A stretch of 32,000 nt of DNA from Candidatus Heimdallarchaeota archaeon B3_Heim (GTDB lineage: Archaea > Asgardarchaeota > Heimdallarchaeia > Hodarchaeales > Hodarchaeaceae). Each line of letters opens with the position of its first letter. Within the stretch, counting starts at the first letter, position 1. The notes under the pieces were generated by a model, which had not been told where the DNA came from, ran no database searches, and saw only the letters and a program-made list of their open reading frames with translations. Shown one piece after another: positions 1 through 13,010 of the stretch. The stretch is from positions 90,001-122,000 of the forward strand of contig NJBF01000004.1 of NCBI GenBank assembly GCA_003144275.1, given 5' to 3'. The position numbers and the translations under genes were made by a program.

Positions 1-693
1 AGTTGGCCATATTTCATTCCTATGCCTATAGGTCTTGGAACAATGGGAGCGTTTATTTCTCAAAAAACTCCAATACGTTCACGAAATGATTTATTTGATG
101 TCGGATTAGCAGGGCCTATTTTTGGATTTATTATCGCAACTATATTCTCAATCATTGGTCTGATGAATTCGATTGTTATACCAGCAGCAGAAGTTACTCA
201 AGAATTTTCAAATCCATTGGGATTATTTGACCTGAGATTAAATAATCCTGATCGAACGAGAATATTATTATTTGAGATTCTTGCCTTTTTTTTCGTTCCA
301 CAGCAAGGTAGTGATGTTGTAATCTTTTTGCATCCTTTTGCTTTTGCAGGGTTCATTGGATTTTTTCTTACAAGCTTGAACTTAATTCCTATCGGTCAGA
401 GTGATGGTGGCCATGTTGCAAGAAGTATATTCTCAGAAAAAAATCATCGAATGGTCACCTATATCAGCGCAGGTGTTCTAGTAGGTCTTGGTTTCTGGAT
501 TTTTGCTATTTTACTATTATTTATGTATTCACAAACTGGACATTCAGGCCCCTTAGATGATTTAACTGAATTGTCCCTTTCTCGCAAAATTGTGACAGGA
601 AGTATTCTGGTATTAATCTTGCTATGTCTACCCTTATCTCCTGATTCCTTATTTGCTGAACTGCTCTCTGATATTTCATCCATTTTTGGATGA
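1..693 (+). CDS. Site-2 protease family (peptidase M50) membrane metalloprotease, 5'-truncated by window edge
   Basis: Frame is open from base 1 (SWPYFIPMPIG...). It has the PYFIP and AGP motifs, several TM segments and the M50 C-terminal NxxPxxxxDG motif (NLIPIGQSDGGH). The HExxH motif would lie upstream of the window. Confidence 0.85.
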   Translation, partial: SWPYFIPMPIGLGTMGAFISQKTPIRSRNDLFDVGLAGPIFGFIIATIFSIIGLMNSIVIPAAEVTQEFSNPLGLFDLRLNNPDRTRILLFEILAFFFVPQQGSDVVIFLHPFAFAGFIGFFLTSLNLIPIGQSDGGHVARSIFSEKNHRMVTYISAGVLVGLGFWIFAILLLFMYSQTGHSGPLDDLTELSLSRKIVTGSILVLILLCLPLSPDSLFAELLSDISSIFG

Positions 694-9769: not shown

Positions 9770-11032
9770 TTACTCTGGCTTACTAAACGAATATTGACGA
9801 TCAAAATCTCCCGAGAGAATCTCATCATGAGCTAGGCGACCGATTTCGGAGTGAACTTGGGGAAAAAGGGGAACAGGCTTTTCTGATGACCAGGGTGTAC
9901 CAGGTAGTGGCATGAAATAATGTAACCGAACGCGGGCTTTTCTTCCAAGGTCGCGCATCACTTCAAGCGTATCCCATTGATCTTGCTCAGTTTCTGAAGG
10001 AGTTCCGAGAATGAAATCAAAGACAGGCGTATAGCCCTGAGAAGTTAGCAGATCGTACGCACGCATTCCTGCGTCTACGGTGTGTCCACGACGCATATCA
10101 TGAAGGATTTTATCAGAACCACTTTGAAATCCAACTGAAATTTGAGTATTATCGACCGAGGAAAAGATAGAAACAATATCTTCTGTGATATATTCGGGTC
10201 TAACTTCAGAGGGAAAGGTTCCTAAAAATAACCGAACATCATACTGACGAATCTGCTGAACTAATTCCTTGAGTATGGGGATATTCGGGATCCCTCGTTT
10301 TTTCTCCATGTAACCTAATGAATTTGGTGCAATAAATCGTATATCCACCTGTTTTTTCAATGGATGAAAATACTCGTAATAATGCTCAATTATCTTTAAG
10401 ATGGCATCTATAGATCGAAACTTTGGATTTCCATACATATATGGTACTTGACAGAAACGACAACGAAACGCACAACCACGCATGATTTCAATGGGTGGGT
10501 GAAGAGGAAAAGGTTCATGAACCGAATAAGGACAATAATGATTAAGATCAATACGTGGACGTGCGGAAGTTTGTACCAAATCATCATTTGTATCCAGATA
10601 CCCAATACCTGGAATGGTAAGTGGATGATGGAGAGAAAAATGTTGTTTACTTAACGAGTGTATGAGTTCAGGAAAAGTTACCTCTCCTTCACCAATTACA
10701 ACGAAATTTGCACCCATTTTCAGAATCTCAAGGGGGTTTCCTGAAGCATGAGGGCCTCCGATAACTGAGATCACTTCTGTAGAGGAAAAATTGTCATTTA
10801 AACTCTTTAATCGAGTTTTCAACTCTGAAAGAGTCATATTTCGTGAAGATTCTCCATAAATTACCCTATATCCCTTGGAAGTCCAATTTTCAATCGTTTT
10901 AGTAACTTCCCCCTTGATAACTTCAAATGGAATATTATGCTGAGAAAGACTTGCTGATATTGCTCCAAAAGCATACCAAGTGATTTTATCCCAATAAAGT
11001 AAAACGACATACTTATTGACATCTTTTAACAT
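9770..11032 (-). CDS. B12-binding domain radical SAM protein (MJ1487/TIGR04013-like)
   Basis: N-terminal cobalamin-binding region (IGGPHASG...VVIGEGE); CxxxCxxC in EIMRGCAFRCRFCQ; FPSEVRPE, QSGSD and FMPLPGTP motifs. Confidence 0.85.
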   Translation of the reverse strand: MLKDVNKYVVLLYWDKITWYAFGAISASLSQHNIPFEVIKGEVTKTIENWTSKGYRVIYGESSRNMTLSELKTRLKSLNDNFSSTEVISVIGGPHASGNPLEILKMGANFVVIGEGEVTFPELIHSLSKQHFSLHHPLTIPGIGYLDTNDDLVQTSARPRIDLNHYCPYSVHEPFPLHPPIEIMRGCAFRCRFCQVPYMYGNPKFRSIDAILKIIEHYYEYFHPLKKQVDIRFIAPNSLGYMEKKRGIPNIPILKELVQQIRQYDVRLFLGTFPSEVRPEYITEDIVSIFSSVDNTQISVGFQSGSDKILHDMRRGHTVDAGMRAYDLLTSQGYTPVFDFILGTPSETEQDQWDTLEVMRDLGRKARVRLHYFMPLPGTPWSSEKPVPLFPQVHSEIGRLAHDEILSGDFDRQYSFSKPE

Positions 11033-11076: not shown

Positions 11077-11233
11077 TCCCTTGGCCGTGATTCGAACACG
11101 GGACAACTCGGTGACTACCCTGACTAACAACCTCATCATCGATTACTCAAAGGTGTGACTTTTGCCTACAGCCGAGGGCTCATTAGACTAGGGCTCTACA
11201 CGAGCCATAGTTTCCAGGCTGAGCTACCAAGGG
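11077..11233 (-). tRNA. trnY: tRNA-Tyr(GTA) with two introns: canonical 37/38 intron (11113-11165, 53 nt) and D-loop intron (about 11182-11210, about 29 nt)
   Basis: Acceptor CCCTTGG/CCAAGGG plus A73 (C1:G72, the archaeal Tyr identity); D stem GCTC/GAGC; anticodon stem CTCGG/CCGAG; loop CTGTAG^A with anticodon at 11167-11169; T arm CCGTG-TTCGAAT-CACGG; no encoded CCA. Confidence 0.92.
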
Positions 11234-11539
11234 AAAGGATTCATCTAGTGATTTTAAGATCTGGTTCTGATAAGGATATTTCTCCTATTTTCCAAATCTC
11301 ACCATGAGACACGATAAAAGAATATTTTATATTCATTCTGTAGTTATCAAATTTAATTTTTTAGGTTTGAATCTCTTAGCATTGTCGGATATAAACGAGA
11401 ACTCCACCTATAATGTTTCCAGGGATCTTTTCCGGATTAATATCTGTTGATAAAGGACTGTTTCATAATGAGAACTTGATTCTTGGGTGTATAAAAATAA
11501 TTAAAACTATTAACTATAACCTTCTATTCTAATTAAGAG

Positions 11540-12397
11540 TTGAAACTAGAACTGAAACATATTTATGCTGAGAGAGACACCTGGAGAAGGGTGTATCATG
11601 ATCTTAGCCAAAAAGGATATACACATAAAAAACTTAAAGAAACATTTGGCACGACTTTATATCACCAACGATTTGTTGGTTATGGGTTGACTAAGGAGAA
11701 GTTTGCTAAATTACAAGAAATTCTTGAGTATCAGATACCGACAATTCCAAATCCACATGGGATCAAACCTAAATTCCTTGAAAAAAATGAAAAATTAGCT
11801 GAACTGATTGGAATAATCCTTGGAGATGGTGGAATGTCGAAAAACTCAATTGTTATTTCGATACATTCGGAAAATAAAGAATACATAAGAAAGGTAACAA
11901 TTCTAATTAATGATGTATTTTCCTATGCGCCAAAATACCATAAGCGGAAAAATAAGAATGTCATCGATGTGAAAGTCCACTCGCAAGGAATTGTGCTTTC
12001 ATTATTAAATCTAGGTTTAGATACAGGAAATAAGGTGAAAAAACAAGTAAATATCCCTAAATGGATTAAAAAAAATGATTCTTTTTTTATTGCTTGTGTA
12101 AGAGGATTAATTGATACGGATGGATATATTGGAAAATATGTAAAGAAAAGAGGTAAATATACTTGGTTTCAATATCATGTTGGTTTTGATAATTATTCTC
12201 TTAACTTGCTTAGCGATTTCGTTGAATTTTGCAATCGTTTCGATATCCCAGTATCACGCACTAGTAAGTACAAAGTAATCATTGGAAGTAGGAGAGGAGT
12301 ATTAAGAATCTTGAAGATTACACAGCCTTTCAAACTAAAAAACATAAAGTTTGACCTCAATGAATTGGGAAAACACTTGGCCAATATTCCTTCATGA
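11540..12397 (+). CDS. Free-standing two-motif LAGLIDADG (DOD/intein-type) homing endonuclease
   Basis: Motifs LAELIGIILGDGG and CVRGLIDTDGYI; Lys-rich; about 80 aa N-terminal extension; no intein splicing residues; TTG start with an in-frame TAA two codons upstream. Confidence 0.88.
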   Translation: MKLELKHIYAERDTWRRVYHDLSQKGYTHKKLKETFGTTLYHQRFVGYGLTKEKFAKLQEILEYQIPTIPNPHGIKPKFLEKNEKLAELIGIILGDGGMSKNSIVISIHSENKEYIRKVTILINDVFSYAPKYHKRKNKNVIDVKVHSQGIVLSLLNLGLDTGNKVKKQVNIPKWIKKNDSFFIACVRGLIDTDGYIGKYVKKRGKYTWFQYHVGFDNYSLNLLSDFVEFCNRFDIPVSRTSKYKVIIGSRRGVLRILKITQPFKLKNIKFDLNELGKHLANIPS

Positions 12398-12443
12398 ACT
12401 AAATAGCTACTCATCTTGTGTTTGCATTTCTAATATTGTTTTA

Positions 12444-12502
12444 AGGGTTCATTAGACTATGATTCTACTCAAGCCACAGCTTTCAGGTTGAGCTACCAAG
12501 GG
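12444..12502 (-). pseudogene. Decayed direct copy of the tRNA-Tyr 5' half including the D-loop intron
   Basis: Ungapped alignment to 11175-11233: 49/59 identical. G15, G19 and G24 are changed to A; similarity stops at the start of the anticodon stem; no anticodon loop, T arm or 3' acceptor strand nearby. Confidence 0.85.
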
Positions 12503-12605
12503 GAAAGCACGAATTACTAGTCAAACAGGCGGCAGAATGAATCTATATAGAGATTCACATGACCTCAGAGGTAGAAAAGAATGAAAATTCTATCTTGAGA
12601 AGCAG

Positions 12606-13010
12606 TTATTCTTGAGAAGTTTGGGCTTCCAAGAGGATTTCTATTTTATCGAGACGCTTGTTGATTTTTTGTAAGGAAGTCATAATCAGTTGAAGACGTC
12701 GATCGACAGCAGAAGCGTCACCTGTTGTTTCGAATTCTTGGGGTACAAGCGATTTGCCTTCGGCTAATCCCGCATTTTTGTATAGTTCCCCTGCAACTTG
12801 AGCTAGTAATGCTTTTGGTACTTGATGCTCGATGTCTGCTTCTTTACAGGCTAATTTCAGACCAGTTTCAACGACCGCCTCTGATAAGTGCTCGCCTAAG
12901 TCAACAGAAGTAGCTACATCGCCACGAAATATAAGTTCAACGACAGGATTCCCTTCTCTTTTTGTTAAACGGGCTTTAAAGGCCATTCCTGGAATATTTG
13001 CTTCGGGCAT
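12606..13010 (-). CDS. Hypothetical protein with C-terminal coiled coil
   Basis: GAGGA SD before ATG; heptad-like VDRRLQLIMTSLQKINKRLDKIEILLE. Confidence 0.7.
   Translation of the reverse strand: MPEANIPGMAFKARLTKREGNPVVELIFRGDVATSVDLGEHLSEAVVETGLKLACKEADIEHQVPKALLAQVAGELYKNAGLAEGKSLVPQEFETTGDASAVDRRLQLIMTSLQKINKRLDKIEILLEAQTSQE

Follow-up and report, generated by a model that had tools for sequence, protein, structure and literature searches.

The window analysed here is a stretch of 32,000 nt from Candidatus Heimdallarchaeota archaeon B3_Heim (Hodarchaeales; assembly GCA_003144275.1, contig NJBF01000004.1, positions 90,001-122,000 of the forward strand; G000 below), and the locus of interest lies at positions 11,077-12,502. 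A tRNA-Tyr gene, a LAGLIDADG endonuclease gene and a second, partial copy of the tRNA gene are found there between two flanking protein genes. The features are as follows, with L029 and G013 denoting two related lineages:

9770-11032, minus strand: B12-binding radical SAM gene (Pfam Radical_SAM and B12-binding), just downstream of the tRNA and on the same strand
11077-11233, minus strand: intact single-copy tRNA-Tyr(GTA) with two introns, from in-silico splicing, its status as sole full copy and orthologue alignments
11233-11213, 11183-11166 and 11112-11077, minus strand: tRNA-Tyr exons 1, 2 and 3, from in-silico splicing
11212-11184 and 11165-11113, minus strand: D-loop and anticodon-loop introns of tRNA-Tyr, from in-silico splicing
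11175-11233, minus strand: putative replacement 5' part (nt 1-28 plus D-loop intron) that came with the cassette; its upstream flank differs from the ancestral promoter flank
11234-11539, no strand: cassette spacer, probably with promoters that diverge towards the tRNA and the endonuclease gene; 77% identical to L029, with near-100% blocks
11540-12397, plus strand: LAGLIDADG homing-endonuclease gene, 285 aa, TTG start (Pfam LAGLIDADG_3, fold match)
12398-12443, no strand: 46-nt junction spacer from the endonuclease stop codon to the break in the old tRNA; 63% identical to L029
12444-12502, minus strand: putative displaced original 5' part (nt 1-28 plus D-loop intron), decayed and ending at nt 28; mutated in D-loop and D-stem, and contiguous with the ancestral flank
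12503-12605, minus strand: promoter region of the ancestral tRNA-Tyr, including a TATA box (12543-12550); ~90% identity to the sequence immediately preceding the tRNA in G013
12606-13010, minus strand: conserved 134-aa gene, function unassigned, beside the locus in all relatives examined

Neither ARAGORN nor Rfam reports any tRNA in the window, and the tRNA-Tyr gene and its fragments go undetected by ARAGORN with intron mode on or off and by Rfam at the gathering threshold or at E<=10. As a result, we used manual splicing and orthologue alignment instead. In-silico removal of two introns, one of 29 nt in the D-loop (11184-11212) and one of 53 nt in the anticodon loop (11113-11165), from the minus strand of 11233-11077 gives a clean 75-nt tRNA-Tyr(GTA) cloverleaf, and alignment shows that the D-loop intron is truly missing in orthologues of other species. 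The 3.9-Mb assembly contains one full copy of this tRNA, and the sole second match to it is 12444-12502 (83%, E 7.6e-11). This partial copy aligns without gaps to 11175-11233 at 49/59 positions, spans the D-loop intron and, in canonical numbering, tRNA nt 1-28, and shows G-to-A changes in both D-loop and D-stem. The repeats enclose nothing but the 285-aa reading frame and two spacers, of 306 and 46 nt. An intact tRNA-Tyr and a decayed 5' copy around a LAGLIDADG gene is thus what the locus contains, as an earlier sequence-only reading of the same DNA had claimed.

Two blocks of the 306-nt spacer (~11283-11345 and ~11470-11502) are near-invariant between G000 and L029, with a TATA-like run in each, and this spacer probably holds the promoters for both the tRNA and the endonuclease gene. 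Its stop-to-stop frames match no Pfam family and contain no integrase remnant. Moreover, Pfam searches in any frame find no recombinase or integrase domain in the cassette or its spacers, in agreement with the integrase-less element of the sequence-only reading. Sequences related to the 46-nt junction spacer are present in other clades. The possibility that this spacer is a decayed continuation of the tRNA was rejected when 1126 of 2000 shuffles scored as well. A duplication of the tRNA's own 5' part as the source of the D-loop intron in clade A (G000 and L029) was also discarded as not significant (396 to 1873 of 5000 shuffles).

Alleles of the tRNA-Tyr locus in Hodarchaeales

Empty alleles, which the sequence-only reading had proposed seeking in close relatives, are present in the two nearest, G013 (flanks 90-92% identical) and G003. 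In both genomes, the homologue of the 134-aa gene, a single tRNA-Tyr and the radical SAM gene stand in a row; the radical SAM flank, which is collinear with that of G000, directly follows the tRNA, and the cassette is missing. Both repeat copies of G000 map to the same 67 nt of G013, and the insert in G000 has a size of ~1.2 kb relative to the empty site, with collinear flanks on both sides. The promoter flank of the G013 and G003 tRNA matches the flank of the decayed copy at 12444-12502. Because the decayed copy retains the ancestral flank, it appears to be the original 5' part, and the 5' part of the intact tRNA would have arrived with the cassette together with its upstream region, in line with the proposed supply of a replacement 5' part and promoter by the cassette. 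Consistent with this, 11175-11233 is 93% identical to the L029 cassette allele, compared to 82% for the remaining tRNA. The ancestral promoter region at 12503-12605 would now drive the fragment only. G013 is without the cassette even though its dS from G000 is only 0.13-0.29. Low-share DNA contigs from sequencing runs cover parts of the occupied allele and, in a relative, one joint of the empty type, but are too fragmentary to carry weight.

At least seven other lineages have the cassette at this locus (L029, L030, L031, L042, L043/L044, G014 and P0003), with endonucleases that are 55-82% identical, and the layout of replacement plus displaced end recurs in L030, L031, L042 and L043. The stub formed by the displaced part ends at nt 28 in G000, L042 and L043/L044, and at nt 24/25 in L030/L031. 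The endonuclease gene of G014 is followed, 12 nt past its stop codon, by a copy of the other tRNA side (~nt 27-89). Alignment of these junctions shows a breakpoint that is common to the lineages. Fragments in L030, L042 and L043 are preceded by a TATA-plus-downstream motif as in G000, but L029 has lost the stub and the old promoter while keeping the tRNA and the endonuclease gene. Decay of the displaced half, as envisaged in the sequence-only reading, is evident from the mutations in the G000 stub; the stub and its promoter are almost pristine in some lineages, however, and conservation of both seems to exceed neutral decay in several of them, so that the simple model of a decaying half appears to fail there. 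Clade C stubs have two mutations in common, which implies that those stubs at least were passed on by descent and not formed de novo.

In a comparison of 12 tRNA-Tyr genes, variation among stem pairs is confined to 28:42, precisely where the junction falls. Cassette-linked tRNAs in clades B and C have C28:G42 or G28:C42, and every stub that reaches the site has T28. In clade A, as represented by G000, T28 is present in the stub and the intact tRNA alike, and no protective change distinguishes the occupied from the empty clade A exons, nt 1-45 being identical to those of G013 and G003. The L043 stub (D-loop GGAA, T28) and intact tRNA (GGCAA, C28:G42) represent different allele types, suggesting that the replacement part is foreign in this lineage. 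The two G000 copies have two intron states in common, decay of the stub masks their origin, and the replacement part is not visibly foreign.

Of 22 genomes in the genus, 4 have the family, as do 6 of the 83 in the class, and the flank tree requires at least four gains or losses of the cassette. Within clades, synonymous divergence is lower in the endonuclease gene than in the flanks (pS 0.36-0.46 versus 0.50-0.62; dS ~0.5 versus ~1.0, for short genes and a simple Nei-Gojobori estimate), and both are saturated between clades. This contrast suggests that the endonuclease gene is younger than its flanks within clades. In addition, site patterns in the radical SAM gene favour (G000,G013) by 40:5:2 and those in the anticodon intron favour (G000,G003) by 10:1, a phylogenetic switch that we regard as a sign of recombination inside the tRNA. 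The lower synonymous divergence and the switch together suggest spread by break repair, and they fit conversion without proving that the endonuclease drove it. At the clade level, the endonuclease and flank trees agree, and the amino-acid identities follow those of the flanks, a pattern that is also compatible with long vertical residence plus losses. Given the presence of the cassette in three clades and the agreement of the two trees, it is old at the locus, and the empty alleles may be secondary losses by direct-repeat recombination.

The endonuclease and its tRNA-linked relatives

The 285-aa protein matches Pfam LAGLIDADG_3 (E 8e-11) and consists of an N-terminal helical domain of ~80 aa followed by two LAGLIDADG domains, the motifs of which end in ILGDGG and LIDTDGY. 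In an alignment of 10 homologues, D96 is nearly invariant and D194 is invariant. The AlphaFold model (pLDDT 87) has the tandem alpha-beta-beta-alpha-beta-beta-alpha fold, with I-Tsp061I, E-DreI, intein endonuclease domains and I-AniI as top Foldseek matches; I-Tsp061I is the best solved match both by sequence (2DCH, E 1.3e-5) and by fold. On the basis of the modelled fold and the catalytic aspartates, which match those of I-Tsp061I-type enzymes, the protein looks competent as an enzyme. A dN/dS of ~0.2 shows purifying selection. The gene is a stand-alone reading frame, with no enclosing intron or intein; it adjoins the intact tRNA on the opposite strand, and in G000 lies outside and antisense to that tRNA rather than within an intervening sequence bounded by bulge-helix-bulge (BHB) motifs.

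In G008 and G033, tRNA-Pro(CGG) is interrupted at nt 26-29 by a paralogue with 44% identity. An uninterrupted tRNA-Pro allele, with a 97% identical flank, is located on another contig of the same metagenome-assembled genome as an interrupted one, and the G033 paralogue is pseudogenised by two stop codons. The 5' and 3' parts of the G008 tRNA-Pro are ~1.7 kb apart with no duplication, and no BHB-like pairing was found at their junctions. Only decaying remnants of an interrupted tRNA-Pro are present in G009, and an inversion in G012 has its breakpoint within the tRNA.

A wider set of homologues was obtained by alignment-query search and comprises 80 loci in Asgard, DPANN and CPR genomes. At 64 of these a tRNA lies within 300 nt, compared to ~5 expected (~0.06 per locus), and the adjacent tRNAs include those for Ser, Pro, Thr, Gln, Arg, Leu and Ala. 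For several isotypes, homologues are found repeatedly next to a tRNA and a partial tRNA copy. The endonuclease gene belongs to a large and apparently undescribed tRNA-associated LAGLIDADG clade in these three groups. One homologue, in G072, was considered as an intein and rejected, being a 769-aa protein with multiple HTH domains plus LAGLIDADG.

Proposed homing and its alternatives

Our preferred interpretation, to which we assign a probability of roughly 0.6, is that the Hodarchaeales tRNA-Tyr gene harbours a minimal selfish cassette with a free-standing LAGLIDADG homing endonuclease as its core. The cassette would comprise the endonuclease gene, spacers with promoter(s) of its own and a spare copy of tRNA nt 1-28, and would have been inserted at tRNA position 28, on the 5' strand of the anticodon stem. 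With the spare nt 1-28, the essential single-copy tRNA would stay whole, and the original promoter and 5' part would be left as a stub beyond the endonuclease gene. We infer that a tRNA-Tyr allele without the cassette is cut through both strands by the enzyme at ~nt 27-29; repair would then copy the cassette from an occupied allele, with the stub and old flank serving as homology arm on one side and the tRNA 3' part on the other. Recombination between the two direct repeats could subsequently remove the cassette again.

The minimal tRNA-homing element of the sequence-only reading is partly supported, being favoured by the architecture, the empty alleles and the tRNA-linked homologues, but the age of the cassette at the locus and the clade A alleles do not fit it as well. 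Changes at 28:42 may allow occupied alleles to escape cutting in clades B and C. If the target is wholly within the tRNA, however, a clade A host would itself be cut and direct-repeat repair would then delete the cassette, which counts against the model. Since clade A exons are the same as those of the empty alleles, self-immunity in this clade is left without explanation by the model.

It is possible, but in our view unlikely, that the gene encodes a resident domesticated LAGLIDADG protein without current homing, perhaps a WhiA-like DNA-binding regulator or a factor of the tRNA-Tyr locus. A single ancient rearrangement would then have duplicated the tRNA 5' part, followed by vertical inheritance and repeated loss. 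Such a history would accommodate the congruent trees and flank-tracking identities, the low dN/dS, the junction that looks common to clades, the common mutations of the clade C stubs, the occupied clade A allele with no protective change, and an old promoter and stub conserved as if functional. The protein also has weak Pfam WhiA_N matches, and one database names a homologue WhiA. WhiA proteins have lost the catalytic aspartates, however, whereas these residues are invariant or nearly so in the 10 aligned homologues. The distribution is very patchy even among sister species, as illustrated by the empty G013 allele at so small a dS, and the within-clade dS of the endonuclease gene is about half that of the flanks. 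Moreover, the different allele types of stub and intact tRNA in L043, the pseudogenised copy in G033 and the occurrence of both tRNA-Pro alleles in one genome assembly argue against a resident gene, and paralogues at many tRNA isotypes in three superphyla point to target switching by a mobile element rather than to one regulator.

Conservation of the stub and the old promoter with its TATA box across clades might instead mean that the stub is functional, either as exon 1 of a giant-intron or trans-spliced split tRNA, for which the widely separated and unduplicated parts of the G008 tRNA-Pro could be a precedent, or as an antisense RNA controlling the endonuclease gene. We regard this proposal as improbable. 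An intact tRNA-Tyr adjoins the G000 stub, which is itself mutated in the D-stem and D-loop, and L029 retains the tRNA and the endonuclease gene having lost both stub and old promoter; in addition, the G008 tRNA-Pro junctions have no bulge-helix-bulge pairing and the interrupted tRNA-Pro is decaying in G009. Least probable is a decayed remnant of a larger integrase-mediated element in the tRNA 5' half, with the repeats as old att sites and the LAGLIDADG gene as cargo: archaeal integrative elements do use tRNA genes and leave partial copies, and in Caldiarchaeum a recombinase-bearing element separates a tRNA-Thr 5' fragment from the intact gene 1.8 kb downstream (PMC3293823), but the insert here is small and both its flanks are collinear with the empty allele, integrase or recombinase signal is missing in every frame, the repeats are inexact at 83% identity, the same endonuclease-only cassette occurs in at least seven lineages within a family that is tRNA-linked at most loci, and the other side of the same tRNA breakpoint adjoins the cassette in G014, contrary to what an att duplication predicts.

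Breaks made by this family and decay of its cassettes may also be a source of unusual Asgard tRNA genes, with non-canonical introns, fragments, in-place inversions and 28:42 switching as target escape, although we consider this extension doubtful. The best hint comes from G010, which is without the endonuclease gene. In its tRNA-Tyr, 12 nt of exon sequence that include nt 28 are directly repeated on either side of the "D-loop intron", and the 19-nt filler resembles the cassette junction spacer (11/13 positions; 75 of 5000 shuffles score as well). This intron matches what an internally deleted cassette would be predicted to leave. Under the same extended reading, the old promoter and stub, conserved across clades, could have been kept as an antisense brake on the endonuclease gene.

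Relation to known systems

I-Tsp061I and I-DmoI are archaeal rRNA-intron enzymes located within bulge-helix-bulge introns that are removed by splicing. Among solved structures they are nearest to the protein described here, which resembles them as a monomeric double-motif archaeal enzyme with a stable-RNA gene as its predicted target. Unlike them, the Hodarchaeales endonuclease has an extra N-terminal helical domain, and its gene is located outside the mature gene and on the opposite strand, a duplicated gene part substituting for the intron. SSV-type and pNOB8-type elements employ tyrosine integrases to target tRNA genes, leaving a partial tRNA duplicate and keeping the intact gene. The tRNA-Tyr cassette has the same outcome but is without integrase, is only ~1.2 kb in length, and has repeats that are not exact att cores.

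In Caldiarchaeum subterraneum, the tRNA-Thr(GGU) locus is polymorphic in a natural population and was proposed as an example of how tRNA genes may become disrupted (Sugahara et al. 2012, PMC3293823). Both loci have a tRNA 5' fragment upstream of an intact tRNA with a mobile insert between them; the Caldiarchaeum insert is multi-copy and has a DNA recombinase, and is therefore transposon-like, whereas the present insert is single-copy and has a homing endonuclease only. The T4 enzyme SegB is a free-standing GIY-YIG endonuclease encoded in a tRNA cluster, which spreads by break-induced conversion with co-conversion of flanking tRNAs, a process termed "intronless homing" (PMC2330249). The two systems resemble each other in having a free-standing endonuclease gene among or beside tRNA genes, but SegB belongs to the GIY-YIG type and to a phage, while the present enzyme is a LAGLIDADG protein in a cellular genome. 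We know of no report of partial tRNA duplication or of insertion inside a tRNA gene for SegB.

A close parallel in architecture is provided by fungal mitochondrial mORFs that carry a replacement gene end, in atp6 of Allomyces macrogynus and in atp6, atp9, cox2 and nad3 of Glomus (PMC3630166). There, a LAGLIDADG or GIY-YIG reading frame is inserted together with a duplicate gene terminus, which can be of foreign origin, so that the gene is whole and the native terminus is displaced nearby (PMC3630166). An endonuclease gene accompanied by a duplicated gene end, a displaced native end and the absence of intron or intein are features of both systems, as is a foreign replacement part if L043 is considered. 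Here, however, the host is a tRNA gene on a cellular archaeal chromosome rather than a mitochondrial protein gene, replacement affects the 5' end, together with a new promoter, and not the 3' coding end, and the endonuclease gene is on the opposite strand with no in-frame fusion; the replacement in G000, moreover, is not visibly foreign. Our literature search found no paper on an endonuclease cassette with a spare gene end in tRNA genes.

If the homing interpretation is correct, the cassette would represent a selfish strategy in which an essential single-copy tRNA gene of a cellular genome is invaded without intron, intein or integrase by means of a spare gene end, a strategy already known for a few mitochondrial protein genes. 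Being large and linked to tRNAs in Asgard, DPANN and CPR genomes, the enzyme clade may be a major overlooked class of mobile elements. A 2026 census of Asgard tRNA introns tested several routes of arrival and found no general one (10.64898/2026.10.13.758758). The tRNA-Tyr locus adds a candidate route for intron arrival, and related species offer, for this one tRNA, alleles that are occupied, empty, rearranged or possibly scarred. Enzymes of this family are also candidate rare-cutting nucleases with predicted targets in tRNA genes.

The tRNA-Tyr locus and its empty alleles

Contig C87 of a MAG (G000; 3.9 Mb, 94% complete) forms the window, and close protein homologues are assigned by database names to Candidatus Hodarchaeales (Asgard archaea). 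ARAGORN and Rfam report no tRNA anywhere in the window; splicing in silico, with both introns taken out of 11233-11077, gives a clean 75-nt cloverleaf. The tRNA features are:

11233-11077, minus: tRNA-Tyr(GTA) with two introns
11184-11212, minus: D-loop intron, 29 nt
11113-11165, minus: tRNA-Tyr intron at the canonical 37/38 site, 53 nt
12502-12444, minus: stub, a partial 5' copy of the gene's first 59 nt, comprising tRNA nt 1-28 and the D-loop intron

The D-loop intron has no counterpart in orthologues of other species and is thereby confirmed as an insertion. The gene is single-copy in the G000 assembly, where the stub is its sole other match (E 7.6e-11). The two copies are separated by a 306-nt spacer, an oppositely oriented ORF of 285 aa, and a 46-nt spacer. 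The sequence-only reading, which described a partial tRNA-Tyr copy and a LAGLIDADG gene bracketed by tRNA copies, is confirmed by an ungapped match of 49/59 nt and by two LAGLIDADG motifs in the ORF. The anticodon-loop intron (11113-11165; 53-60 nt) has a core kept genus-wide (...CACACCT..GA....CGATGA..AGG.TGTTAG...), which loosely resembles a C box but has no D box; its two allele types in clade A (G000, the occupied locus L029, and the genomes G013 and G003) are distributed at odds with the flank tree.

Empty alleles, with one tRNA-Tyr and no cassette, had been envisaged for close relatives and were found in G013 (flank identity 90-92%) and G003 (75-77%), in which the 134-aa gene, the single tRNA-Tyr, and the radical SAM gene are directly consecutive. 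Both G000 copies match the same 67 nt of G013. Upstream of the stub, the sequence (TATA box at 12543-12550) is the orthologue of the promoter flank that precedes the lone tRNA of G013 and G003; no such orthology holds for the sequence ahead of the intact G000 tRNA. The stub is therefore the original 5' part, still in place, and nt 1-28 of the intact gene with its upstream region belong to an insert of ~1.2 kb. No Pfam family is matched in any frame of the cassette spacer (11234-11539), in agreement with the view that it holds no integrase remnant. With ~8 changes unique to it across its 59 nt, the stub has been decaying for roughly as long as G000 and G013 have been separate (dS 0.13-0.29), or longer, and the empty alleles could have arisen by reversion, through recombination of the direct repeats.

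The endonuclease and its cassette in other lineages

Homologues with 55-82% identity occupy the tRNA-Tyr locus at L029, L030, L031, L042, L043/L044 and P0003 and in the genome G014. The displaced tRNA parts, with their distances from the endonuclease stop codon, are:

L030 stub: nt 1-24, 5 nt
L031 stub: nt 1-25, 4 nt
L042 stub: nt 1-28, 1 nt
L043/L044 stub: nt 1-28, 43-44 nt
L029: old promoter and stub deleted
G014 fragment: duplicate of nt 27-89 (opposite side of the break), 12 nt

Taken together, the stubs and the G014 fragment show that the stop-codon end of the cassette can adjoin each of the two sides of an nt 27/28 break. Relative to both its flanks the G014 tRNA is inverted, and the intact tRNA lies upstream of the endonuclease gene. 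L043 carries in addition an inverted tRNA 3' fragment, an insertion of IS605 type, and an intron in the T-loop (31 nt, in the tRNA-Tyr at 169-330). Comparison of window 11077-11233 with L005, L006, L008 and L010 shows the whole tRNA-Tyr inverted between the same two genes in G009, G011, G006, G010 and G014 relative to G000, G013, G003 and L029-L031, with no boundary repeats seen at the inverted gene. IS605-family genes lie at L043 608-2325 (a resolvase-type TnpA and TnpB/OrfB, between tRNA-Tyr and the endonuclease gene) and at L029 4509-5714 (TnpB, downstream of the 134-aa gene).

The claim that the displaced half decays holds for the G000 stub, in which D-loop and D-stem are altered, but not for L043, where stub and old promoter are nearly pristine and the promoter motif is common to several clades. 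The orphaned promoter (window 12503-12605; upstream of the L030, L042 and L043 stubs) is kept beside the stub in distant clades as a TATA box with a CTRGSGCC-like motif ~10 nt downstream, facing the endonuclease gene in antisense direction. The stub may stay conserved because repeated homing refreshes it, because the intact gene converts it, or because it has a function, for instance in antisense control. Two spacer blocks (11283-11345 and 11470-11502), each with a TATA-like run, are ~100% identical between G000 and L029, with synonymous sites of the flanking genes about half saturated; they may act as promoters or encode a small RNA.

The aspartates of both LAGLIDADG motifs are kept in homologues, dN/dS of the gene is ~0.2, and the AlphaFold model of the protein is confident (pLDDT 87). 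By both sequence and fold the closest solved relative is I-Tsp061I, an archaeal rRNA-intron endonuclease. A helical N-terminal domain of ~80 aa precedes the nuclease core, and in the G072 relative several helix-turn-helix repeats stand in its place. This 769-aa protein (L037 1450-3756, minus) ends in a LAGLIDADG domain of the same family, and an intein was rejected on account of that architecture. In Nanohaloarchaea and in further Heimdallarchaeia, distant homologues adjoin genes for tRNA-Thr(UGU), tRNA-Arg and tRNA-Leu. The expected recurrence beside tRNAs of various isotypes was indeed seen: of the 80 best homologue loci identified across 185,579 species genomes (Asgard, DPANN, CPR and others), 64 show a tRNA no farther than 300 nt from the matching stretch, against a background of 0.06 per locus (~5 of the 80), and in 55 of these 64 it lies just downstream on the same strand.

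Vertical residence or movement

The endonuclease and flank trees agree at clade level, and amino-acid identities follow those of the flanks, as for a domesticated, vertically inherited resident gene, the main rival explanation, which we consider unlikely; the cassette junction also looks common to the clades, so that the cassette is old at this locus. Other results speak for movement. Presence and absence on the flank tree require at least four changes, and synonymous divergence of the endonuclease gene within clades is about half that of its flanks (pS 0.36-0.46 versus 0.50-0.62), both being saturated between clades. At third codon positions, G000 and L029 are 74% identical in the endonuclease gene and 59-62% in the flanks. 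Among G000, G013, L029 and G003, G000 pairs with G013 at 40 informative sites of the radical SAM gene, whereas 10/11 sites of the anticodon intron give G000+G003 and G013+L029, the switch falling between 11074 and 11113, in the 3' exon or immediately ahead of it; in L043, moreover, stub and intact tRNA are different allele types (GGAA D-loop and T28 versus GGCAA and C28:G42). Repeated, break-induced conversion at the tRNA would fit these signs of movement, with the endonuclease as its possible cause.

Pair 28:42, the only variable stem pair among 12 tRNA-Tyr genes, sits at the junction. In clades B and C, further Hodarchaeales groups with the cassette, cassette-linked tRNAs have C:G or G:C there, and stubs reaching position 28 have T. 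The difference would be consistent with target escape; clade A, to which the window belongs, has an intact tRNA with T28 and exons identical to those of empty alleles, with no protective change in the exons. The endonuclease gene is absent from G010, whose tRNA-Tyr (L007 ~1507-1680, minus) holds a 31-nt insertion between exact 12-nt direct repeats of exon, AAGAGCCCTCGG, spanning nt 28, and the 19-nt filler matches the G000 junction spacer at 11/13 positions (75/5000 shuffles score as well). This insertion may be the scar of a deleted cassette, now serving as an intron.

A selfish homing-endonuclease cassette is the best supported reading (probability roughly 0.6). It would resemble fungal mitochondrial mORFs, in which an endonuclease and a replacement gene terminus are carried together (PMC3630166), here in an Asgard archaeal tRNA gene. 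T4 SegB is a free-standing endonuclease amid tRNA genes (PMC2330249), and in Caldiarchaeum a recombinase element separates a tRNA-Thr 5' fragment from the intact gene (PMC3293823). A 2018 survey placed all archaeal group I introns in rRNA genes (PMC6125680), and a census of tRNA introns in Asgard archaea from 2026 (10.64898/2026.10.13.758758) leaves their arrival route open and does not mention LAGLIDADG; our literature search turned up no account of LAGLIDADG cassettes associated with tRNAs.

A paralogue in tRNA-Pro(CGG)

In G008 (L011 1-2865) and G033 (L012, L027), tRNA-Pro(CGG) is split at nt 26-29, with no duplication, by a paralogue of 44% identity; the G033 copy is pseudogenised by two stop codons. 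In G015 this tRNA is uninterrupted, and a second contig of the G008 MAG (L026, G008:C32) ends in an uninterrupted tRNA-Pro with a 97% identical flank, indicating presence/absence polymorphism in one population or bin. Only remnants are found in G009 (L022), a 48-nt 3' piece of the endonuclease gene and a decayed tRNA-Pro 3' part, and G012 (L016) has an inversion with a breakpoint inside the tRNA-Pro 5' part. Beside the locus, L011 ~326-462 (minus) is one of several further heavily interrupted tRNAs noticed; it begins GGGACGTGG and has an apparent T-loop intron. Because a UGG anticodon can read CCG, tRNA-Pro(CGG) is plausibly dispensable, which would explain why plain disruption survives at tRNA-Pro, whereas at the single tRNA-Tyr all the cassettes found are gene-restoring ones.
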